A stretch of 21,881 nt of DNA from positions 1 to 21,881 of the forward strand of contig JBDRBK010000198.1 of NCBI GenBank assembly GCA_043822705.1. The letters are read 5' to 3'. Source of the DNA: Fidelibacterota bacterium (GTDB taxonomy: Bacteria; Fidelibacterota; Marinisomatia; Marinisomatales; TCS56). The position numbers were made by a program, and so were the translations under genes. Below the pieces are notes generated by a model, which saw nothing but the letters and a program-made list of their open reading frames with translations, did no database searches and was not told the DNA's origin. Every line of letters starts with the position of its first letter. Positions within the stretch are counted from its first letter, which is position 1. Shown here one piece after another: positions 1 to 20,360 of the stretch.

Positions 1-23
1 CAGTACCCAAATCGTTACCCAAT

Positions 24-1091
24 TCATTCGACATTACCTAATTGCCAACGATCAGTTTTCTGCCAGCGGGCGTTCTGTCCGCGCCCCAGACATTCGACAT
101 GCTCCTGCGCCCGCAGGTTTTTCAATATCTTCCGGATCATATCGATACCGACATTCGGACACTTGTTTAGTAGTTCGGCGACGCTGAAAGAACCTGACGT
201 TTTGTCAATCGCTTGCAGCACCAGGTTGGTTTTCTCACCTTTCGGGCTTTGAAGCTGTCCGAGGCGCTGTTCGAACTCGCAGTAGGCTGTCTTAATAGTG
301 TAAAGAACATAGTTGATATATGGCCAGGGATCGTGGTCGCCGGAATGCCAATTTTGAGAACTCTGCTCCAGAGTTTCATAATACCGTTCTTTATTTTCCT
401 CAATCAGGCGTTCCAGACTGATATAGCGACCAACCTCGAGACCAAAATGGTAACATTGTAAGAGTAGCAGGAGCCTGGAAACCCGCCCATTTCCATCGCG
501 GAATGGATGTATGCAAAGAAAATCCAGATTAAAAGCAGCCAGGAGTACCAATGGCGGTATTATACGTTCCCTGATTGCTTCATTATAGGTTTCCACAAGT
601 TCTTGCATACTGGCTGGTGTATCGGCGGCAGGTACGGTCTTGAAACGAATTCTTGAGCGGCCATCAGGGAAGCATTCGATAATGTCACCATCCTTTTCCT
701 TATATTTTCCAGCTTCCCAATTCTCACCACGTGTCAGACGATGGAGCTTTTGAATCATCGCTTCCGAAACCGGGAGTTTTGTACTTTGCTCGTGTATCAT
801 AGTCAGAGCATTACGATAGCCTCGGACTTCTTCTTCATCCCGATCCCGCAGGAGCGATTTGCCGAAGACAACAGTGGCAATCCTGGTTTGATCGACTGCG
901 ATGCCCTCGATTCGGTTGGAGGACACGGCGCTTTCAATGAGAGCGTGCTCACGAAGCATTTTAAGACGTTGTGGTGATTGCCGGGTAAATAAATCCTGCT
1001 TACCGAGTGCCTCTGCCAAATCCGAAAGATACCAAGCTGTGGTAGTTGGTATGGTTTCGAATTTCCTGGAAAAAAGTCGCAGTGTCATCAT
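24..1091 (-). CDS. Fic family protein (putative AMP transferase) with C-terminal winged-HTH-like extension
   Basis: Fic motif HPFRDGNGRVSR; N-terminal SNRIEG matches the (S/T)xxxE(G/N) autoinhibitory motif of class II Fic proteins. Confidence 0.93.
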   Translation of the reverse strand: MMTLRLFSRKFETIPTTTAWYLSDLAEALGKQDLFTRQSPQRLKMLREHALIESAVSSNRIEGIAVDQTRIATVVFGKSLLRDRDEEEVRGYRNALTMIHEQSTKLPVSEAMIQKLHRLTRGENWEAGKYKEKDGDIIECFPDGRSRIRFKTVPAADTPASMQELVETYNEAIRERIIPPLVLLAAFNLDFLCIHPFRDGNGRVSRLLLLLQCYHFGLEVGRYISLERLIEENKERYYETLEQSSQNWHSGDHDPWPYINYVLYTIKTAYCEFEQRLGQLQSPKGEKTNLVLQAIDKTSGSFSVAELLNKCPNVGIDMIRKILKNLRAQEHVECLGRGQNARWQKTDRWQLGNVE

Positions 1092-1252
1092 GATTTTTTC
1101 CCTCCGTATTGTGGGCGTTCTTCTTTCACTGACATGGGTTTCGGCGTAGCATTGATATCCAGTCGGTAGAGGGCTACCTCAACAACTTCATGCCAGGAAA
1201 AGCGGGCTGAATCTTTGATCGGCTCTTGCATGGTTGGAATTGTAGCACAGTT
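1088..1252 (-). pseudogene. Probable C-terminal remnant of a larger gene (resembles the tail of DUF3883-containing SNF2-type helicases), or a 47-aa ORF starting at 1231
   Basis: Reads NCATIPTMQEPIKDSARFSWHEVVEVALYRLDINATPKPMSVKEERPQYGGKKS*; its TGA overlaps the Fic ATG (ATGA coupling). The family resemblance is from memory and unverified. Confidence 0.4.
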
Positions 1253-1429
1253 AATGTGATCTTGCAATAAAAAAATGGACAGTATGCGAAGTCATACAGC
1301 CTGTTTGTAGTTAATTGCTCATATGGTCTGGGGATTTCTACCCTAGGGCCAAGTACTTCCTGTAAACTCGACGAAGCGATGGATTTCTTAGGAAGAATTG
1401 CAGACGCTTTAAGAGCATTATTATAATGT

Positions 1430-1798
1430 TTATGAAGCAGGATTATTCATACCCAGTATCCGCTTGGCGATTTTACATGCCTCCGCCGCCTTTTCACTGG
1501 CAGCCAACGAATAATAGATATTAGAACCATCGCGCTGCGTTTTCACCAGTTTACGATCGCGCAGATAGCGCAGATGATTGGAAAGAGCCGCCGCGCTCAT
1601 GTCCATCACTTCAGCCAATTGATTTACGCTACAATGATCAATTTCGAATAAAATATAAAGAATCCGCAAGCGCGATAAATTGCCTAACATTTCGAAGGTC
1701 GCGGCCGTCATTTCCAATTCTGGAAAGTTATTCAACTTGACTTTCAAATGGTCCATAACGGCCTGATCCAGGTGCTCACAATGCTGAATTTCCGCCAT
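1430..1798 (-). CDS. ArsR/SmtB family transcriptional regulator
   Basis: FEMLGNLSRLRIL...SVNQLAEVMDMSAAALSNHLRYLRDRKLVKTQRDGSNIYYSL fits the ArsR winged-HTH pattern. Confidence 0.9.
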   Translation of the reverse strand: MAEIQHCEHLDQAVMDHLKVKLNNFPELEMTAATFEMLGNLSRLRILYILFEIDHCSVNQLAEVMDMSAAALSNHLRYLRDRKLVKTQRDGSNIYYSLAASEKAAEACKIAKRILGMNNPAS

Positions 1799-1960
1799 CC
1801 TAATAGTCCCTTTTTAAGACCAGTATGTTTTCCATTGTGCGCAATGTTGTTTATACTGTCTTAAAGTTTACAAATATTTATGCCCTGATTAAATCTTTTC
1901 CGGTTAAACACAATAAAGTATCTTTTATGTTATTTAACGTCTATATGTGAATTTTTAATA

Positions 1961-1990
1961 TTGACAACCACTTTTTACCCTGCATATGCT
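1961..1990 (+). promoter_or_regulatory. Putative sigma70 promoter for the rightward (PolX) gene cluster
   Basis: TTGACA (1961-1966), 18-bp spacer, TATGCT (1985-1990) in the AT-rich divergent intergenic region. Confidence 0.45.
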
Positions 1991-2221
1991 TTTACTACAC
2001 ACAGTTTCTCAAATCGGGAAACAGGAAGAAAAAGTAGTATGAGCTTAATGTCGGATGTGTCATGGGTGAAATGTTTCGTGATTGGGAAAAAGTGCTTGAT
2101 CGTAATTTGATCCTCAGCACCATGAAATAGCCAACACGGTAGGGGCGTCGAATTTCTTTTTATTTGCAACGAAGATAATGTGTAAACACAGCAAAGTAGG
2201 AATAATAAGGAGTGTTGTAAT

Positions 2222-2779
2222 ATGAAAAAATCAATGTCGAGTGATGAAGCCCTTGGTATTGGATTAATAGTGTGGAAGGGGCTGGTGTTAGCTTCGGAGA
2301 AAATGTGCGGATCGCTACTATGGTCGGCGATGAATTTCTTAGGCAGTCTTCGCCGGATGAAGGGGACAGTAGGCGATTTGGACATGGTATTCTTCTTCGC
2401 AGGAATAGATCAGATGGCCAAGATGCCAGAGTTAGTATGCCAGTTCGCATCGACAAGTGCAGATTTTAATTTGGAAATGTGCGGGAATCGAAAAGCGCGG
2501 ATGATGGTTCTCGGTAAACAGGTGGATTTAAGTTTTCACCTGACTAAAGAGACTGGTGCTGCGTTGATTCATCATACTGGCCCCGCAGAGCATAATATCG
2601 CATTGAGACAATTAGCCCAGGATCTGGGAATGTCGTTGAATGATAAGTGCATAACGATAGATGGTGAGGTGCGATACTTCGATCTGGAAATCGACGTGTA
2701 TATGCAGCTTGGGTTAGAATACATCCCGCCGCAAGACCGAACCGGCAATTTGTCCTTGGCTGGTCGCGGGCAATCGTAA
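2222..2779 (+). CDS. Minimal family X DNA polymerase (catalytic and C-terminal subdomains only; ASFV Pol X-like architecture)
   Basis: GSLRRxKxTVGDLD (D52, D54), QVDL (D102), AALIHHTGPAEHNIALRQLA, ExDVYxxLGLEYIPPQDR. RBS AAGGAG upstream; in-frame TAA at 2183-2185 limits the N-terminus. Confidence 0.88.
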   Translation: MKKSMSSDEALGIGLIVWKGLVLASEKMCGSLLWSAMNFLGSLRRMKGTVGDLDMVFFFAGIDQMAKMPELVCQFASTSADFNLEMCGNRKARMMVLGKQVDLSFHLTKETGAALIHHTGPAEHNIALRQLAQDLGMSLNDKCITIDGEVRYFDLEIDVYMQLGLEYIPPQDRTGNLSLAGRGQS

Positions 2780-2886
2780 AAAAATAAAATCTACTTGTGA
2801 ATTATTATACTTGACACGGCGAATTTGGTCTGAAGAATTTATCACAGGTTCAATAACAACCACACACGATAAAGGAATCAGTAGTT

Positions 2887-3030
2887 ATGGGAATCAGATT
2901 GAAGAAGAAGTATAGAGATCGAGTTCAAATCTTTTTCATCATGAATCCGTGGCAAGCAATAACACTAAAAATATTGATAGCGGTGGCGTTGATGTGGTCG
3001 TTTGTTGGCGGTTTTAACATCACACATTGA
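2887..3030 (+). CDS. Small single-pass membrane protein, 47 aa (not in ORF track)
   Basis: MGIRLKKKYRDRVQIFFIMNPWQAITLKILIAVALMWSFVGGFNITH*; AAAGGA upstream; basic N-terminus then hydrophobic stretch; stops 7 nt before the next ATG. Confidence 0.55.
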   Translation: MGIRLKKKYRDRVQIFFIMNPWQAITLKILIAVALMWSFVGGFNITH

Positions 3031-3037
3031 GGGTAGG

Positions 3038-3592
3038 ATGAGCAAACTGGACTTGAGAATAATCAATACAGTCGAAGTCAGATTAGAGGTAACTGGCCTG
3101 AAGGAAAACGAACTTGCAAAAATGGTTTTCCCGATATACGGCGGCGACAGAAAATTAGTTGAGGATCTTGGCCTTGAAGTATACGATTACCTTCCAGGGT
3201 ATCAGGTTATCATTGGCGATGAAGCTTTATGGACGGCTATGTATCAAGAATTGAAGGTATTTCCAGAGACGTTTGCTTTCTGGGATGTCAAGTCCAAATG
3301 GAAGATCGATGAGAATTGTGGTAAATGCCCTTTCGTTGATGAATGTAAGCATAAACAGTGGAAGCAGGTTATGCTGGGTACTAAGCCGGAATGGATAGCC
3401 AAGAAAGAGAAGAAAACGGAAAGTTATAAGACCGAATTAAGTTTAACGAAGTGGGGCGAAGTTGATTACGTTCCAAACCCAACGGGGATGAAGCCGTCAT
3501 TTGAAAGGCATTTGATGGAGTACCGGCTGGAACGTGAAACACGGTTCGATAGCCCATACTATGGTAAAAACGATGGTGGGGCCAGAAGTTAG
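3038..3592 (+). CDS. Hypothetical protein with Cys cluster (CGKCPFVDEC)
   Basis: Long ORF in the co-oriented cluster; ATG at 3038 preceded by GAGGGTAGG. Confidence 0.7.
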   Translation: MSKLDLRIINTVEVRLEVTGLKENELAKMVFPIYGGDRKLVEDLGLEVYDYLPGYQVIIGDEALWTAMYQELKVFPETFAFWDVKSKWKIDENCGKCPFVDECKHKQWKQVMLGTKPEWIAKKEKKTESYKTELSLTKWGEVDYVPNPTGMKPSFERHLMEYRLERETRFDSPYYGKNDGGARS

Positions 3593-3904
3593 GCGGTTAT
3601 ATCATCCCAGGGTGAAGGTGCTGAACGATCGCAACCTGGTTATTCGTGGAATGCGGATTATGTCTGGGATTTACATGGAGTATTAGGGAAAATTTAATTC
3701 TGCTCTCCAGCAGCAGTGCGCCTGTTCAGATAATTCCCGACTGTTTAAGCGGGCGATTTTAAAAGGGGTGAGATGGTGAGGCAAAACATGATGCAAAACG
3801 AGACTTATCCGCAGAATTGTGAAGGAGCCTTACTCTTACATCAAAAACTATCGACAATGAATATCTCGAAGATAATAGAAGTATTAAAATTTGGAGATGT
3901 GTTT

Positions 3905-4555
3905 ATGTACAAAGTACATCAAAATTTTCCCATCCCTGACAAGTACTATGGGGAGCATTCGCCAATACTATCAAAGACGACAGGTAATCGACCTGGTATA
4001 AGTGTTTATACCGAAGGTAGATATGTCACTTACTCAATGGATTTGTTAGTACCGGAAGCGTGGAAATTCGCAAAGGGCTTTAAGATTGGCAATGTGGATA
4101 TTGAGAAAAGGATGTTCACGGCATCATACGATACGCGGGAGCCGGAGGCCGATCGCGCACACAATTTAATTCATCCGATAGAGGTTTTACCTTTTTTAAA
4201 GCCGGATAGGTTTTACGCCAATACGGAGATGAAGGATTTGGCGGATTTGAATATCTATGTGAAGTTTTTTACACCGTGGACTCACTGGACATGGTACGCA
4301 TACGAGTACAATCCGGAGGATAGAATTTTCTTTGGTTTAGTCGATGGATTTGAAATGGAGTTTGGTTCATTCAGCTTAGATGAGCTGGATGAAGTGGTTG
4401 GCCCTGTGGGACTGCGGATTGAGCGCGATTTGCACTTTGGGCCAAAAAAACTTCGGGACATTGCACCGGATCGGTTCTCTAGATATCCAAAGAAGATCAG
4501 CGATGTGACTGAGCCTGAATTGATGGATTTCATAGGTGGTTTGGTAACTATTTAG
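3905..4555 (+). CDS. DUF2958-like domain protein with uncharacterised N-terminal domain
   Basis: C-terminal VKFFTPWTHWTWYAYEY...FFGLVDGFEMEFGSFSLDEL...GLRIERDLHF fits the DUF2958 pattern. Start placed at ATG 3905 after GGAG; the ORF is open from 3773. Confidence 0.8.
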   Translation: MYKVHQNFPIPDKYYGEHSPILSKTTGNRPGISVYTEGRYVTYSMDLLVPEAWKFAKGFKIGNVDIEKRMFTASYDTREPEADRAHNLIHPIEVLPFLKPDRFYANTEMKDLADLNIYVKFFTPWTHWTWYAYEYNPEDRIFFGLVDGFEMEFGSFSLDELDEVVGPVGLRIERDLHFGPKKLRDIAPDRFSRYPKKISDVTEPELMDFIGGLVTI

Positions 4556-4556
4556 C

Positions 4557-4588
4557 CCTTGGCGAACAATTCACATTGTTTGCCGAGG
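4557..4588 (+). other. 14-bp RNA hairpin between the DUF2958-like gene and radC
   Basis: CCTTGGCGAACAAT-TCAC-ATTGTTTGCCGAGG; both non-Watson-Crick positions are G-U pairs on the + strand; no U-tract follows. Confidence 0.65.
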
Positions 4589-4636
4589 TTGCCCGTAGTG
4601 TGTGAATAAAACAGGATTTATCAAGGAGGTTAATGA

Positions 4637-5095
4637 ATGGCAGCTTTGAAGTTGGATACGGTGTCTGATCAATTAATTGAAGCTGAATATCACCGGCGTT
4701 TTTCCATCCAGCCTGGAACTGAAGTCAACAATTCTGATATCGCTGCTCGGCATTTTACGGGGATGCTATCAGGTAATACTGGGAAAGAATGTTTTGCAGT
4801 GATCTTTTTAAATGGTTGCAACAAGTTTATTGCCGGTGAGATCATGTTCAAGGGAACGTTAACAAAAGCCGGCGTATTCCCCAGAGAAATAGCTAAGAGA
4901 TCGCTGGAGATGAATGCTGCAGCGATAATTTGCGCCCACAACCATCCGTCCGGCAACCTTCGACCAAGCCGTGAGGATATTGACGTTACAGCCAGGATAA
5001 AAGCCGCACTTAAAACGGTAGACGTTGCCCTTCACGATCATCTGATAATTGCTGGGGCAGGGAAGTGTAGCTTTGCCGACGATGGGTTATTGTAA
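4637..5095 (+). CDS. radC: RadC-like JAB/MPN domain protein (short mobile-element type)
   Basis: E-x-F-x-VIFLN, GTLTKAGVFPREI, AHNHPSG-x4-S-x2-D, LHDHLII; strong RBS AAGGAGG. Confidence 0.92.
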   Translation: MAALKLDTVSDQLIEAEYHRRFSIQPGTEVNNSDIAARHFTGMLSGNTGKECFAVIFLNGCNKFIAGEIMFKGTLTKAGVFPREIAKRSLEMNAAAIICAHNHPSGNLRPSREDIDVTARIKAALKTVDVALHDHLIIAGAGKCSFADDGLL

Positions 5096-5116
5096 ACAAA
5101 TATTTGATTGAGGTCA

Positions 5117-5602
5117 ATGATGGAAGATGAAAAAGCGATTATAGAAAAGAGTACAGATTATAATTCAATTGTTGACAACTGTGTTGGCAATGTAATTTCT
5201 GAGACAGCAGTTATGCCAAAGAAATATACCCAGCAGGAAATTGATATAATCGCCGAGGCGTTGCGAACGAAGGAAGAATTCACGATCGCAGAAATCCAGA
5301 CGATTGCCAGAGTGTCCCGCCAAACGGTGTATAACTGGATGGACAAGGGGTTGAAGTCGTTCAAGAAGAGCGGAATGCTGTTTTTCAAAAAGGAACATAT
5401 TACTGCATATTTCGATGATTTATTGCAAGTCACGAACTTAGAGAACGAGCCAAGAAGGACAGTGAATGTCCGCCTTGCGTTTTACAATATTATTTCCGGC
5501 GAAGCCAAAAAGAGAAGATGGTCAATGACGAAGATGGTAGATCATATTGTTAGTGCCGGACTGAGAATTTTGGACAATAATGAATCGAAGGAGAAAGAAT
5601 GA
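5117..5602 (+). CDS. DNA-binding protein: excisionase/MerR-like HTH plus possible C-terminal ribbon-helix-helix
   Basis: FTIAEIQTIARVSRQTVYNWMDKGL is HTH_17-like; RRTVNVRLAFYNIISGEAKKRRWSMTKMVDHIVSAGL is RHH-like. Confidence 0.7.
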   Translation: MMEDEKAIIEKSTDYNSIVDNCVGNVISETAVMPKKYTQQEIDIIAEALRTKEEFTIAEIQTIARVSRQTVYNWMDKGLKSFKKSGMLFFKKEHITAYFDDLLQVTNLENEPRRTVNVRLAFYNIISGEAKKRRWSMTKMVDHIVSAGLRILDNNESKEKE

Positions 5603-5967
5603 AATACACAGTAGTGGCGGCGATATTGTCGAAAGCCGGTAGTGGAAAGTACACAGCATTAAATTCCTTCCCAGTTCATAATGTGCGAAAAAACGGGAAA
5701 GGGTTTGTCGCAGATATTCAGCACGGTAGCGGTGAGATAGCAGAAGTTCTGTTAAATCGTGTTAATGAAAGCGGCGGCGGTTATTTTTTGTGCGAGGTGC
5801 TTGAAAGCAATTACCGCTCTATCACCGACGAAGCAATATCAGCGACAGCGGATTTGACTCAATTCCATACTGCCCAGGGTGTAATTGAAGAACCAGCAGG
5901 AGAATTAGGCTTTCTGGACGGTCTTAATGATCTGGATAATTTTTCACTGGAATTAGATGACATTTAG
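5599..5967 (+). CDS. Hypothetical protein with acidic C-terminus
   Basis: ATGA overlap with the preceding gene; RBS AAGGAG. Confidence 0.7.
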   Translation: MKYTVVAAILSKAGSGKYTALNSFPVHNVRKNGKGFVADIQHGSGEIAEVLLNRVNESGGGYFLCEVLESNYRSITDEAISATADLTQFHTAQGVIEEPAGELGFLDGLNDLDNFSLELDDI

Positions 5968-6006
5968 TTTGCCCTAAAAGTTGAATAAAATGAACAGTAG
6001 GACTAA

Positions 6007-6219
6007 ATGAGTGCAATATCATGTTGGGAATGTGTCGGATTATTAATTACCGGGGATCGGTTTGTCGATGACTCTGAGTGCCGGAGCCCCGAAGTGAAGA
6101 AAATTTTGGAAGGGAAAGGTCAGAAATATTTAAGGGCTGAAGGCTTAGACAGAGGATGCCGCTTTGCTGTTGCAAAAGAATCCCCTGAAGCCTTCAGCGC
6201 CATGTTGGATATAATCTAA
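6007..6219 (+). CDS. Small hypothetical protein with four Cys (CWEC...C...C)
   Basis: RBS TAGGA; fills the gap up to the convergent repressor gene. Confidence 0.55.
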   Translation: MSAISCWECVGLLITGDRFVDDSECRSPEVKKILEGKGQKYLRAEGLDRGCRFAVAKESPEAFSAMLDII

Positions 6220-6638
6220 GCGTTTGACGCTATTTCGCTGTCAAGAAATCCTCTGATAAGATCATGTAGTTTTGGATTATGTTTGTGCAATATTACGTGA
6301 TGATGGATTGCCTGGTTTAGGAGGCCATTCTTATATAGATAGTCCATGTCGTTAATAAGCGTTGGACATTGATCTATGTATTTCGATAGGGATTTGTCTC
6401 TGTTATCTTCAGTACCGAAGAGTAAGTAATCCGTCGTGATTTTGAATGTGTTGCATATGCTGATGATTTTATCACCAGACAGTTCGACTTTTCCGCGTTC
6501 TACAAGACTCAGTGTGGACTTTGAGCAGTTGGTCTTTTTTGAGAGATCCCCCAATGATAGGTTGTTCGCCGCGCGAACCCTCTGCAATCGCTTCCCACGT
6601 TGAATGAGTGCAGGATTTGTACTTACAGATTGCTCCAT
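6216..6638 (-). CDS. XRE/cI-like HTH repressor
   Basis: GKRLQRVRAANNLSLGDLSKKTNCSKSTLSLVERGK...ICNTFKITTDYLLFG is a typical HTH_3. Start placed at ATG 6638; the ORF is open to 6770. Confidence 0.88.
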   Translation of the reverse strand: MEQSVSTNPALIQRGKRLQRVRAANNLSLGDLSKKTNCSKSTLSLVERGKVELSGDKIISICNTFKITTDYLLFGTEDNRDKSLSKYIDQCPTLINDMDYLYKNGLLNQAIHHHVILHKHNPKLHDLIRGFLDSEIASNA

Positions 6639-6749
6639 TGATTTAATGATCCCTGTTATGCTGTTAGGAATTCTACCCGTGCTTGCTGCCGTTGTTGCTT
6701 CCGAAGCTGCGGCCGGTGATGGTCCGACATAAGCACAGTGGAAATTATA

Positions 6750-6777
6750 CAATATATTGGACGAAATCAATATATTG
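6750..6777. promoter_or_regulatory. Twin palindromic operator candidates
   Basis: CAATATATTG occurs at 6750-6759 and 6768-6777, between the divergent repressor gene and the rightward operon. Confidence 0.55.
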
Positions 6778-6900
6778 TTTAATGAAAACTGTGTATTAAA
6801 TTGTGGTGTCGACTTTCATGTTCATTATTAACGTTTGCGGACAATGGGAGATAAATTGACACACACACAATTAACAACAACGTTGAAGGAATTGCATATT

Positions 6901-7191
6901 ATGAGTGACTTGGACGGTAGAACATTTGAACAAATTTTCGATGTCATGTTTGGGGGAAATAATTGTGAGTACCCATTATTGAAGAAATTACTGAGAAATG
7001 ATACGTATTATGGCGAGATAGTTTCTTTGATGGCACAGATGCAAGTGATTGGGGTTAGAACAAATCTTTATGAAACTGCTCGAAGTGCAATTATCATGCA
7101 GGTTAACACAGCAGTTAGTCTTGAGCTGCCGGAAGGAAGTATCAGCAGTCCTTCAGTTGCAGTAGTACAATTGAATTCCGAAGCACAGTAA
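6901..7191 (+). CDS. Hypothetical protein divergent from the XRE repressor
   Basis: ATG at 6901 with upstream GAAGGA (alternative start 6844); followed by a terminator. Confidence 0.65.
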   Translation: MSDLDGRTFEQIFDVMFGGNNCEYPLLKKLLRNDTYYGEIVSLMAQMQVIGVRTNLYETARSAIIMQVNTAVSLELPEGSISSPSVAVVQLNSEAQ

Positions 7192-7207
7192 ACATAAAAA
7201 CTGTGAG

Positions 7208-7234
7208 AAACCCGCCCAAGACGGGTTTGTTTTT
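7208..7234 (+). terminator. Rho-independent terminator
   Basis: AAACCCG-CCCAAGA-CGGGTTT followed by GTTTTT. Confidence 0.65.
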
Positions 7235-7299
7235 GTCCGAATAGTGCAACATATTCAACGATTTGTAGAGATAGTTGAATCTTAACAAAGGATAAGGAT

Positions 7300-8250
7300 A
7301 TGCCAATATACCGAACATATTCCGAACTTAGAACGGCTCAAGGTTGCACCCTCGCGCATCACTTGAGGTACGAGAAGAAATTGAGAACCAAGGATTCCGA
7401 CTTTCATTTCTTTCGTGTTGGTGGCGCTGTACATGAGTTTATCGACCAGATGTATAAGTATCACTTTAAGCAGGATGAGATTATCCGGAAGGTACGAGAA
7501 CACTTAAAGCCAGAGCATGAATTCGCCATGCAGTTAGACCCGAACTTTACGCCTGAAGTAGCAAAAATCGAGATGGCGACTGTTGAAGGGCTTCTCAGGT
7601 TATATTACAGAGAATGCTACCTTAAAGAGAATATCCAGATGGTTGAGACGGAAGCTGAATTCCAGCTTGATTTCCATGAGTTTATTTTGACTGGAAAAAT
7701 TGATGGCCGGCTGAAAAACGAAACCGGAGAACATCATTATATCCACGAAATCAAGACTCGTGCTAATGGCTGGTGGGGGCCGAGACAGGTTGCTGATCTC
7801 CCCTTGGATGAGCAGATTAAAATATATGTATTTGCAGCGAACAACGTTTGGAGGGACTCAATTACAAGGGGCGCTCTTTATACGGTATTAATAAAACCCG
7901 GCATCAGACAGAGGGTGAAAGATACCGTGCAGGATTATTGCGACAGGATTATCGAAGAATATACCGATATGGATGGGAAGGATCCCGGGTATTCGGCGGC
8001 CAAGTATCTATCGCGCCACTATGTATATCATTCTACACTGACTATGCAGGAAGTCTACAATAAGGTTATCCAGATGAACCGGGCAATTGTGAACAGGGTA
8101 GAACCGTTCCCCTGGTCGGGGGATCACTGCGGGATTTGCGATTTCAAAGATTATTGCAAAACCGTCGATGGGGCTTCAAGGTCATTGATCCTGGCTAATA
8201 ATTTTGTCATGGGTCAAAGTAAACACACTGAATTAGCATTTGCGATATAA
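7300..8250 (+). CDS. PD-(D/E)XK nuclease, Cas4/AddB/RecB-like, probable 4Fe-4S cluster
   Basis: TYSEL...C near the N-terminus, GGAVHEFI, ETEAEF, LTGKIDG, IHEIKT, QIKIY, and C-terminal CGICDFKDYC. Confidence 0.88.
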   Translation: MPIYRTYSELRTAQGCTLAHHLRYEKKLRTKDSDFHFFRVGGAVHEFIDQMYKYHFKQDEIIRKVREHLKPEHEFAMQLDPNFTPEVAKIEMATVEGLLRLYYRECYLKENIQMVETEAEFQLDFHEFILTGKIDGRLKNETGEHHYIHEIKTRANGWWGPRQVADLPLDEQIKIYVFAANNVWRDSITRGALYTVLIKPGIRQRVKDTVQDYCDRIIEEYTDMDGKDPGYSAAKYLSRHYVYHSTLTMQEVYNKVIQMNRAIVNRVEPFPWSGDHCGICDFKDYCKTVDGASRSLILANNFVMGQSKHTELAFAI

Positions 8251-8260
8251 GGTGAGGAAG

Positions 8261-8512
8261 ATGGATCATTCAAAACTTGATTTGCTTTCGATAGAGGAAG
8301 CAGCGAAGCAATATCCAGTCAGTACATCGAAATTGTATAAGTTGGTTAGACTGAAGAAAATTCGGCACCGGAAATGTGGTAGGTTGGTATTTTTCGACCG
8401 CTGCGACATTGAGACATTGTTTGTCTTGGTCAACCCGATCGTGGATGGTGTTCCGATTACCAGGGAACAGGAAATGGTCAGTAGTCAGGTGGAAAGGATA
8501 TTGGCCGGTTAA
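8261..8512 (+). CDS. Excisionase-like HTH_17 DNA-binding protein
   Basis: LLSIEEAAKQYPVSTSKLYKLVRLKKIRHRKCGRLVFFDRCDI; RBS GAGG; about 100 bp from the att site. Confidence 0.85.
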   Translation: MDHSKLDLLSIEEAAKQYPVSTSKLYKLVRLKKIRHRKCGRLVFFDRCDIETLFVLVNPIVDGVPITREQEMVSSQVERILAG

Positions 8513-8617
8513 TGCTTGCACGTCTGACACCTGCTGGCATTATATGCGTTCAAAAAGAGGCAAAATCAGGACTAATTTGCAGCAGCGATAACGGTTTATC
8601 GTCGGTGAGGTGCATTG

Positions 8618-8660
8618 CTCCGGAGCATGAGGTCGCAGGTTCGAATCCTGCTGGGCGTAC
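8618..8660 (+). other. att site: displaced 3' half of tRNA-Arg(CCG)
   Basis: Anticodon loop CTCCGGA, 3' stem GCATG, variable loop AGGTC, T-arm GCAGG-TTCGAAT-CCTGC, acceptor 3' strand TGGGCGT-A. No D-arm or complementary 5' acceptor strand upstream. Confidence 0.88.
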
Positions 8661-8662
8661 GT

Positions 8663-8686
8663 AAACCCCTGAAAAGGGGTTTTTTT
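8663..8686 (+). terminator. Rho-independent terminator (probably the original tRNA terminator)
   Basis: AAACCCCT-GAAA-AGGGGTTT followed by a T-run. Confidence 0.85.
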
Positions 8687-8762
8687 GTAGACTTACAATA
8701 ATTGCCAATTTAAGAATATGATTATTTTGCAATTGTAAAATGTCTGTAAGTAAAATCAGACG

Positions 8763-9092
8763 ATGCGGAATACAGCAAAACAGGCCATTATTGTCTTGAC
8801 CAATGCTGCGTCGGAGACGGCAGCGGAAACGATCGCCCTGGAATTACTGGAGCAGCGACTGGCAGCCTGTGTCAATATTTTACCCGCTGTAAAATCATTT
8901 TTCCGTTGGGAGGGAAGCATCCAACAGGAAAATGAAGTCGTATTGTTAATCAAAACGACCGCAGAACGGCAAGAGCACGTTTTTGCCCGGATCCGGCAGC
9001 TTCACGCCTATGCCGTTCCGGAAATAATTGCCGTCAAGATCGACTCGATCAATCAACAATATCGGGAATGGTTGGAAAATGTTGTTCAATAG
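8763..9092 (+). CDS. cutA: Divalent-cation tolerance protein CutA
   Basis: LLEQRLAACVNI, SFFRWEG, E-x-LLIKT, HAYAVPEII. Confidence 0.95.
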   Translation: MRNTAKQAIIVLTNAASETAAETIALELLEQRLAACVNILPAVKSFFRWEGSIQQENEVVLLIKTTAERQEHVFARIRQLHAYAVPEIIAVKIDSINQQYREWLENVVQ

Positions 9093-10122
9093 CCAACGTT
9101 TTTGGCCACAATCCGGATTTAGACGTGTTTTAGTCTATCTGCTGGCGTTGGTAATCGGTGGCAGTTTGGGTTTTTATTTTTTAGGTGGTGAGAACTGGAC
9201 GCTGCTGGACAGTCTATACATGACGATTATTACTTTATCGACGGTCGGCTACGGTGAAATTCATGAATTAAATACACTTACGCGTCTGTGGACGATAATC
9301 GTCATCATCTTTGGTGTCAGCGGAATTACCTTCATAGCAACTCAGTTTATCCAGGAAATGGTTGATATGAAGAGTTACCGGAGGAAACGTATGGAAAATC
9401 GGATTGCGAAAATGAAAGAGCATTACATTGTCTGCGGATTTGGCCGCATGGGCGAAGTCATCTGCGACGAACTGCATCATAAACGCCGGGACTTCGTAGT
9501 GATTGAGCAACGCAACATGAACATCGAAATGTTGAATGAAAAAGGCTATACGCATATTGCCGGTGACGCAACCAATGAGGATATTCTGGTCAGTGCCGGC
9601 GTCGAGCATGCCAAAGGTGTGGTGATCACGCTGGGTTCCGACCCGGATAATTTATTTGTCACTATGACAGTAAAGACGCTGAATCCCAAAGTGTTTATTT
9701 TGACTCGCTGCAGCACGATCGGCTCGGATAAGAAATTCCGTCGGGCCGGAGCCAATAAAGTCGTTAATCCCTATGTGACCGGCGGTCATAAAATGACCGA
9801 ACTATTGCTGGCGCCGGATTTGAATGATATCGTCGAAATAAAAACCGATATTGAAAAAGATCGCTCCCTGGAATTCGGTATCGATCAGATTACGCTGGGC
9901 ATTGCACCATATCTCGACGGTCTGCAATTGCGGAATTCCCGATTACGTGAGGATTATAATCTGATGGTACTCGGTATAATCGAAAAGAATGGGAAAGTAG
10001 AGATCAACCCGCCACCGGATTATTTACTTGACCAGACCCAGAAAGCGATAATTATCGGTGCCAAAGAAGACCTGGAGCGATTCAAGGTTGCATTGGATAC
10101 AAATAATCTCGTAGGCGTATAA
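9079..10122 (+). CDS. Two-TM potassium channel with RCK (TrkA-N/TrkA-C) domains, MthK-like
   Basis: Selectivity filter TVGYG; HYIVCGFGRMG Rossmann motif; GDAT; AGANKVVNP. Start placed at ATG 9079, overlapping cutA. Confidence 0.93.
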   Translation: MLFNSQRFWPQSGFRRVLVYLLALVIGGSLGFYFLGGENWTLLDSLYMTIITLSTVGYGEIHELNTLTRLWTIIVIIFGVSGITFIATQFIQEMVDMKSYRRKRMENRIAKMKEHYIVCGFGRMGEVICDELHHKRRDFVVIEQRNMNIEMLNEKGYTHIAGDATNEDILVSAGVEHAKGVVITLGSDPDNLFVTMTVKTLNPKVFILTRCSTIGSDKKFRRAGANKVVNPYVTGGHKMTELLLAPDLNDIVEIKTDIEKDRSLEFGIDQITLGIAPYLDGLQLRNSRLREDYNLMVLGIIEKNGKVEINPPPDYLLDQTQKAIIIGAKEDLERFKVALDTNNLVGV

Positions 10123-19770: not shown

Positions 19771-20115
19771 CTAATTAATTATCAGTAATGCCTTCAATTT
19801 CAGCGAACACTCTTTTGTAACCGATTCAGGTACTCGATCAACAAATTGCGCTGTCCGGGCTTTCCAGTCCAGACTCTTAATTTGATCTGACAATATGACA
19901 CCGGAAATTTTCAATTTTTCCGGTATGACGACTTCAAACGGGTATCCCTTTTTATTACTTGTTATAGGACAAAATATCGCCAGACCAGTTTTGGAATTGT
20001 ACTGTTTTGGTGATAATACGATAGCTGGTCTATTTCCCATTTGTTCGTGCCCCGACTGTGGCGTAAAGTTCAACCAGACAATATCTCCTCGATCTGGTAT
20101 ATATGGCTGAACCAT
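19771..20115 (-). CDS. mazF: MazF/PemK endoribonuclease toxin
   Basis: YIPDRGDIVWLNFTPQSGHEQMGNRPAIVLSP, KGYPFEV, DQIKSLDW. Confidence 0.96.
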   Translation of the reverse strand: MVQPYIPDRGDIVWLNFTPQSGHEQMGNRPAIVLSPKQYNSKTGLAIFCPITSNKKGYPFEVVIPEKLKISGVILSDQIKSLDWKARTAQFVDRVPESVTKECSLKLKALLIIN

Positions 20116-20360
20116 TATAATGCTTCCTTACCTGCCGGTAATCCAAAATCTACTGCTTCATGCAAATTGTCTTCACATATTTCCGCCAGCAGCGCCGACA
20201 AACTGTATTCTTCTGATTCACTAATTGGTGATATTATCAAATGGTCGTTATCTAAAGTAAGATCGACAATACTATTATTTTCGATATGGGTTTCTTTGGC
20301 AAAGGCACCGGGGATCCTCAGAGCTAAACTATTGCCCCATTTTTGAATTTGAACTCTCAT
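20115..20360 (-). CDS. mazE: MazE (AbrB-fold) antitoxin
   Basis: IQKWGNSLALRIP; TAATG coupling to mazF. Confidence 0.95.
   Translation of the reverse strand: MRVQIQKWGNSLALRIPGAFAKETHIENNSIVDLTLDNDHLIISPISESEEYSLSALLAEICEDNLHEAVDFGLPAGKEAL

Follow-up and report, generated by a model that had tools for sequence, protein, structure and literature searches.

A predicted minimal family X DNA polymerase on a bacterial element inserted in tRNA-Arg(CCG)

We describe polX, a short gene on an integrated element in a groundwater-associated bacterial genome. With a probability of roughly 0.6, we consider it an intact family X DNA polymerase of naturally minimal form that is accessory cargo of a tRNA-Arg(CCG) element and carries out template-directed, distributive short-gap filling or patch repair. 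By analogy with family X at large, the product would use two metals to add one or a few dNTPs at the 3'-OH of a short gap, template-directed and distributively, and would have no lyase, exonuclease (proofreading) or AP endonuclease activity of its own. Its anatomy (no 8-kDa domain, no 5'-phosphate pocket like that of African swine fever virus (ASFV) Pol X, an acidic surface) suggests that it binds DNA weakly; the gap would be made by host or element enzymes and sealed by a host ligase. The likely role would be patch repair of element DNA that has undergone base excision, nicking or recombination, and the host lineage is one in which we found no PolX.

The polX gene and its genomic setting

The window, 21,881 nucleotides long, is a whole contig of a 3.3-Mb genome (G000) that is 93% complete. 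The original prediction described a 185-residue open reading frame with its own ribosome-binding site, an in-frame stop just upstream and the catalytic aspartates D52, D54 and D102; all of these were seen (Table 1), and their alignment to ASFV D49, D51 and D100 holds. From stop to stop the open frame spans 197 codons, and the upstream TAA rules out an N-terminal extension. Mononucleotide shuffling of the 6.7-kb region gave a frame of at least 185 residues in only 1 of 200 trials. Sigma-70-like consensus matches numbered 6, against 3.8 +/- 1.9 in shuffles. Besides the aspartates, the motifs C87-G-N-R-K91, H117-H-T-G-P121 and L139-N-D-K-C-I144 are present. The protein matched the Pfam thumb domain PF14791 (E 2e-15; 56.8 bits, cut-off 25). 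Its best PDB sequence match was Thermus thermophilus PolX (E about 9e-10 to 1.8e-10), with ASFV Pol X behind it (E 6e-5 to 1e-4). PHROG gave no match, and the homologue search returned no relative above about 43% identity.

Table 1. Features in and around the polX element, by position in the window
Feature	Position	Strand	Remarks
Fic-domain gene	24..1091	-	cargo of same insertion as polX
108-bp stretch	1257..1362		84% identity to sites on C156, on C29 and in relatives; possible insertion-sequence end remnant
ArsR regulator gene	1430..1798	-	divergent from polX
arsR plus upstream DNA	1479..1918		~80% identical to host arsR locus present twice, C1 and C105
Sigma-70-like site TTGACA-18-TATGCT	1961..1990	+	in the AT-rich stretch separating arsR from polX; match to consensus only
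In-frame TAA	2183..2185	+	12 codons 5' of polX start
Shine-Dalgarno AAGGAG	2207..2212	+	9 nt 5' of polX ATG
polX, minimal family X DNA polymerase gene	2222..2779	+	palm plus thumb only; 185 aa, 20.4 kDa, pI 5.8
polX catalytic triad codons	2375..2527	+	D52 2375-2377, D54 2381-2383, D102 2525-2527; aligned to ASFV D49/D51/D100
polX dNTP-pocket motif H117-H-T-G-P-A122..N125..R129	2570..2608	+	pol beta Y271-F-T-G-S-D276..N279..R283 positions
184-aa ORF	3038..3592	+	CxxC cluster; no usable family match
DUF2958-containing gene	3773..4555	+	E 3e-15
Solo RadC-like JAB domain gene	4637..5095	+	
HTH_17 DNA-binding protein gene	5108..5602	+	
Phage-type HTH_3 repressor gene	6216..6770	-	
26-nt imperfect inverted repeat	6734..6793		at start of HTH_3 repressor gene; candidate operator
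PD-(D/E)XK (Cas4-like) exonuclease gene	7300..8250	+	
Excisionase-family HTH protein gene	8240..8512	+	TIGR01764 above cut-off
tRNA-Arg(CCG) 3' remnant	8608..8661	+	right attachment site of element
MazE/MazF-type toxin-antitoxin pair	19771..20360		

We compared the locus with contigs from two public runs of one study, which possibly include the source sample. Across 1707-2347 they show 2 differences and no gaps; across 2419-3189 there are 28 differences, with gaps solely at 2783/2786, 3' of the polX stop (2348-2418 lies outside the pieces listed). A 96%-identical strain contig among them carries indels only after the stop codon. We conclude that polX is a complete, real gene and not a decayed fragment.

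Could polX nevertheless be a recent, non-functional piece of a bacterial PolX-PHP gene? Full-length PolX proteins are among its best sequence matches, and a placement with PolX-PHP is not rejected by the AU test described below. However, when window 1-9000 was searched, reading through stops, with profiles of the N-terminal parts of 47 and the C-terminal parts of 45 full-length PolX proteins, no HhH, 8-kDa or PHP remnant was found (best E 3-6); the sole PHP gene met in the remnant search of the source genome is an unrelated one on C41. Moreover, polX has its own ribosome-binding site and upstream stop, it starts and stops where members of the minimal class do, and it shares only about 35% identity with any PolX-PHP core. 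This reading is largely refuted, and we give it scarcely any credence. The earlier view of an intact stand-alone gene is borne out by the palm-plus-thumb fold, by flanks empty of HhH and PHP sequence, and by complete minimal homologues of the same length, so that close homologues are not all full-length PolX-PHP proteins.

The gene had also been placed on a mobile element. In the same-family genomes G002 and G004 an intact tRNA-Arg(CCG) lies between folD and cutA/trkA, and in the window cutA/trkA are the genes right of the tRNA remnant. Hence, all DNA left of position 8608 lies in an insertion, and we conclude, in agreement with the original prediction, that polX belongs to a mobile element, here one integrated into tRNA-Arg(CCG). 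Neither a CCG tRNA, among 42 called tRNAs, nor folD was found in the 93% complete G000. The contig begins inside the element, which may be a prophage, an ICE or a satellite, and the left end, the integrase, folD and the intact tRNA are unassembled. G000 encodes three tyrosine recombinases, none of them on the polX contig. ARAGORN called no tRNA in the window, and Rfam gave no match in 1-9200. As far as it is assembled, the element encodes neither a ligase nor a repair partner; no ATP-dependent ligase was found in G000 at 93% completeness. A viral locus for the element's PD-(D/E)XK exonuclease was sought and none was found; for the 184-aa ORF, the ESM Atlas gave no usable match.

Two further observations concern insertion sites. 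In G002, an intact tRNA-Arg(CCG) is followed by a 30-nt copy of the tRNA 3' end (L127:811-937), which suggests that elements in the same family reuse this site. G000 holds a second island at tRNA-Lys (C30:29902-36592), with an integrase and a small excisionase-like gene.

We found PolX of no kind in the 40 relatives of the source genome. Across 300 genomes of the phylum we obtained 35 PolX matches in 32 genomes; one of the matches is a complete minimal gene, of 181 aa. In a Mu-like prophage (L117:5342-8599; G133:C32), it is flanked by the transposase and the AAA ATPase, a place that fits the filling of transposition gaps.

Predicted fold, active site and DNA contacts

An AlphaFold2 model of the polX product, built from a 14-sequence alignment, reached pLDDT 94.3 and pTM 0.88. 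Compared with 48,161 solved chains, it gave ten matches at Z of at least 8, all of them family X polymerases (Z 14.9-20.0); the next match had Z 7.8. ASFV Pol X (5hr9) aligned with Z 18.9 and rmsd 2.7 over 169 residues, model 2-174 to chain -1 to 174. This end-to-end alignment means that polX begins and stops where the ASFV protein does. The ASFV score is tied with those of pol lambda, TdT, pol beta and T. thermophilus PolX. The model thus predicts a palm-plus-thumb fold of the pol beta type.

In the alignment, D52/D54/D102 and GSxRR are intact. Set against the family X pocket, (Y/H)FTGS(D/K)xxN...R, polX keeps H117, T119, G120, N125 and R129 and departs at H118, P121 and A122. A His at the steric-gate position is found in 40% of canonical bacterial PolX (PMC9226535), and H117 is this common variant. 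The altered residue is instead the following Phe, which is present in 53 of 58 canonical PolX-PHP proteins, is His in polX and varies freely across the minimal class. Similarly, the Lys at the D276 position (52 of 58) is Ala in polX. The original prediction had pointed to the resulting HH pair and to LNDKCI. Both are present, but HH is a recurring trait of the minimal class and no peculiarity of polX: it occurs in 6 of 16 DNA-confirmed and 16 of 55 protein-only minimal members, in none of 58 canonical PolX-PHP proteins, and also in two PHP-bearing loci with altered triads. LNxxC recurs in P0013 and P0135.

The Phe-to-His and Lys-to-Ala replacements bear on the reading that polX is a relaxed nucleotidyltransferase, which would tail DNA independently of a template or use NTPs and might, for instance, block, tag or join DNA ends in a host-defence conflict. 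Palm plus thumb alone allows template-independent addition in engineered FvPolX (PMC13252658), and polX has as a neighbour a solo RadC, a domain discussed in the available text of PMC5512222 for conjugative-element conflict proteins. However, the steric-gate His is the one common in canonical bacterial PolX, polX retains N125 and R129, the residues that check a nascent base pair, and wild-type truncated FvPolX is weak (PMC13252658). We regard such a transferase as unlikely, and low fidelity or sugar tolerance of the polX product as unsupported.

Across the minimal class 28 columns are conserved, and polX keeps 24 of them (class range 19-28); three of its four changes are conservative. C143 sits where Gly stands in 16 of 16 DNA-confirmed and 53 of 55 protein-only members. 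The net charge of the polX core is -4, with a class range of -9 to +18. Perhaps polX was once a functional minimal gene that has since weakened or begun to decay on an island that is immobile? The departures at D141 and C143, the position at the acidic end of the class and a long terminal branch would be consistent with this, as would the fact that the integrase and left end were not assembled. Decay is quite improbable, however, given that the catalytic and pocket residues are all intact, the class-conserved columns are kept to the extent just described, LNxxC is shared with P0013 and P0135, and indels in the strain contig lie only past the stop.

In ASFV Pol X, a 5'-phosphate pocket formed by R125, T166 and R168 is needed for detectable DNA binding. 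Its dG:dGTP misinsertion has been tied to this pocket, to V120 and L123, which contact dGTP, to the stack of F102 and F116, and to an H115-R127 platform (PMC5330486). By sequence alignment, V120, L123, R125, T166 and R168 correspond to A122, N125, A127, E166 and I168 in polX, and F102 and F116 to S104 and H118; the platform is kept as H117-R129. These replacements speak against ASFV-type low fidelity; low fidelity had been put forward as a possibility. The ASFV motifs named at that stage were correct (81-CGERK-85 and 115-HFTGP-119). At the template-site patches, CGNRK of polX matches 4 of 5 residues of CGERK and MSLNDK 2 of 6 of YKLNQY, with ASFV K136 and Y140 replaced by S138 and K142; ASFV contacts at CGERK are made chiefly via the backbone (PMC5330486).

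The minimal class and kinship with ASFV Pol X

In a search with polX, 29 of the best 149 non-self matches at 50% clustering were of 215 aa or fewer. We hand-picked 13 apparently complete short homologues to seed a minimal-class profile. Loci were sought with minimal-class patterns, and the counts of minimal genes are therefore not a frequency. The 117 fetched loci contained 96 distinct PolX ORFs; for 18 of these, the boundaries on both sides left a palm plus thumb and nothing else. Apart from polX and one frameshifted piece, DNA thus confirmed a further 16 complete minimal genes: 11 on viral contigs, one in a phage of 462 kb, three on contigs from metagenomes and one in the Mu-like prophage. 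Together with protein-only records there are 78 minimal sequences in 50 groups at 60% identity. Length was constant in two 90% clusters (172-173 aa in 14 of 15 listed members; 158 aa in 14 of 15 listed). The Asp-Asp-Asp triad is present in 10 of 16 DNA-confirmed and 48 of 55 protein-only members. The ESM Atlas clusters nearest to polX hold proteins of 163-197 aa, mostly from tailed phages (score 0.96-0.97). Several minimal members already bear the database labels DNA polymerase family X or 10. When the genome collection was scanned twice with the minimal-class patterns, no locus was confirmed; the patterns are narrow, and this null result is no evidence of absence.

Same-length homologues and dN/dS had been named at the outset as checks on an intact gene. 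The homologues exist; the dN/dS values come from another, soil HH-type minimal subfamily and were 0.10-0.22 in all 6 pairs of four loci. Seven loci of this subfamily were fetched, and we left out two that were apparently frameshifted and one cut by a contig end. Seven locus pairs with identical proteins had no nucleotide differences and were uninformative on selection.

A ligase lies within 5 kb of minimal PolX in 3 of 14 other loci and is lacking in 11, and the 141 neighbours of these 14 loci include no fixed partner. One phage repair cluster (L042:1435-7047) combines a pyrimidine-dimer glycosylase, minimal PolX, an adjacent ATP-dependent ligase and a PNKP phosphatase.

Some members depart from the plain form. 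A short CxC...C-H module, which we take to be like a SWIM zinc finger, is fused to minimal PolX in L046:5992-6852, L052:5923-6663, L057:5923-6762, P0176, P0183 and L050:5731-6396. It is C-terminal in most and N-terminal in L050, and is possibly a substitute DNA-binding device. On an 82-kb contig, a minimal HH-type PolX carries a C-terminal domain that opens with a DxD motif and is presumably HAD-like (L073:5866-6903). In phages of 429-462 kb, minimal PolX bears Asp-x-Asn instead of Asp-x-Asp (L006:3884-4396, L038:5884-6396). Phage proteins of 870-900 aa have a PolX core followed by 550-600 further residues (L008:4350-7067, L009:4656-7277), and a 666-aa giant-virus protein joins an N-terminal domain that by eye resembles an AP endonuclease to a full PolX core (L131:6537-8537).

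We then considered descent. polX shares 23% identity with ASFV Pol X and up to 35% with PolX-PHP cores or other minimal members, and by phmmer score to ASFV Pol X it ranks 235 of 312. The resemblance to ASFV Pol X that had first drawn attention to polX is one of architecture, and special kinship is not supported; the sequence is nearer bacterial PolX. ASFV Pol X itself falls among other minimal proteins from the environment, 153-205 aa long, with SH-aLRT 98 in a 112-row quick tree and 88/93 in a careful 66-row tree from which 46 rows (long branches and near-duplicates) had been dropped. In both trees polX is outside this group. In the 66-row tree it is also outside the PolX-PHP clade (99/87) and is sister to P0013 (99/95), a pairing absent from the quick tree. 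Its terminal branch is long (1.4-1.6). AU tests rejected neither a clade of polX with PolX-PHP (p-AU 0.53; log-likelihood 2.5 above the free tree) nor one with ASFV Pol X (p-AU 0.35), leaving either origin of polX compatible with the trees. ASFV Pol X finds its closest matches in the environmental minimal proteins P0168 and P0200-P0216, of 153-205 aa, some on 131-334 kb contigs and several shorter than ASFV Pol X.

Is polX then an ASFV-type error-prone polymerase, a dG:dGTP-misinserting mutator related to the viral enzyme by descent? The two proteins have the same domain ends, the H117-R129 platform, TGP and CGxRK in common, and, as noted, the AU test does not reject an ASFV clade. In addition, a profile of seven HH-type minimal proteins puts ASFV first in the PDB (103.7 versus 97.9 bits). 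However, V120, L123, F102, F116 and the 5'-phosphate pocket are all absent from polX, its rank to ASFV is low, and ASFV groups with other environmental proteins. We find this very unlikely.

We prefer the gap-filling reading, for which we counted the fold match, the 24 of 28 columns, the 16 other minimal genes, the phage Atlas clusters and the subfamily dN/dS, together with the ligase near 3 of 14 loci, the Mu-like prophage member, gap filling by YerA41 pol beta and the lack of PolX in 40 relatives. Against it we counted the missing 5'-phosphate pocket, S138/K142, C143 and the weak FvPolX truncations. We also counted against it that the element as assembled has no ligase or other repair partner, that 11 of 14 loci lack a ligase within 5 kb, that the evidence of selection comes from another subfamily, 2 of whose 7 loci look frameshifted, and that no relative exceeds about 43% identity.

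A survey of prokaryotic PolX gives a mean length of 573 aa, in line with the earlier statement that bacterial PolX is about three times longer, and only 10 sequences under 400 aa (PMC9226535); its dataset may include some short members. ASFV Pol X is called the smallest known DNA polymerase and a minimal PolX in papers up to 2026 (PMC13252658, PMC11646218). In the largely open-access literature that we searched, nothing describes a PolX of palm and thumb alone from a bacterium, phage or integrated element, and the available text of PMC7354516, PMC7824862, PMC8775771 and PMC6266253 makes no mention of minimal phage PolX. We tentatively suggest, as a speculation more than a conclusion, that palm-plus-thumb PolX is an old, widespread class of 153-190 residues in phages and integrated elements, some members being shorter than ASFV Pol X. 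Members like polX, whose nucleotide pocket is freed (HH) and for which no device that binds the 5' end is known, would then engage DNA in another mode or follow relaxed template or sugar rules, and ASFV Pol X would represent a single specialised branch of this pool.

Judged by sequence, the interest of polX may lie in its membership of this predicted class and less in the ASFV link; it is a harmless member that should be easy to express, and is unusual chiefly for its acidity and its location on a bacterial island. Dozens of divergent natural minimal enzymes would permit a direct test of what gap binding and filling need without an 8-kDa domain. The class also supplies candidates from which ASFV Pol X may have arisen, and natural 18-21 kDa scaffolds for enzymatic DNA synthesis, where artificial truncations are now used.

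Comparison with known systems

ASFV Pol X (174 aa; PDB 1JAJ, 5HR9; PMC5330486) shares with polX a palm plus thumb only, a size of about 20 kDa, the triad, the His-Arg platform, TGP and CGxRK. In contrast to the viral enzyme, whose pI is 10.0, polX has a pI of 5.8, lacks the R125/T166/R168 pocket and V120/L123, and has His for F116. It lies on a bacterial integrated element, and a linked ligase or AP endonuclease was not found there.

Bacterial PolX-PHP (T. thermophilus PolX, PDB 3AU2; NF006375; PMC9226535) shares the canonical triad, GSxRR and the N279 and R283 equivalents. polX is one third as long, has no 8-kDa, HhH or PHP domains, and scores 52.6 bits against NF006375, whose cut-off is 426. 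It has HH, TGP and Ala where PolX-PHP has YF/HF, TGS and Lys. Noncanonical, exonuclease-only PolX combines an altered triad with an intact PHP domain, whereas polX has an intact triad and no PHP domain.

YerA41 pol beta and similar phage PolX of 250-320 aa are likewise family X proteins of bacterial mobile elements that lack PHP (PMC13697223). They have 90-160 extra N-terminal residues relative to polX (the YerA41 protein is 38.9 kDa with its tag), and YerA41-type phages encode a ligase and a UDG-fused replicase besides pol beta (PMC13697223). YerA41 pol beta fills a 1-nt gap in vitro and inserted dTTP or dCTP opposite dA (PMC13697223). Though larger, it is the nearest assayed phage precedent for polX.

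Finally, engineered s149FvPolX shares with polX the palm-plus-thumb scaffold of about 20 kDa (PMC13252658). In a template-independent assay with dATP, palm-thumb truncations of Faustovirus PolX gave yields below 6%, against about 100% for the full-length enzyme (PMC13252658). s149FvPolX is an artificial truncation that was weak until mutated, whereas polX is a natural gene.
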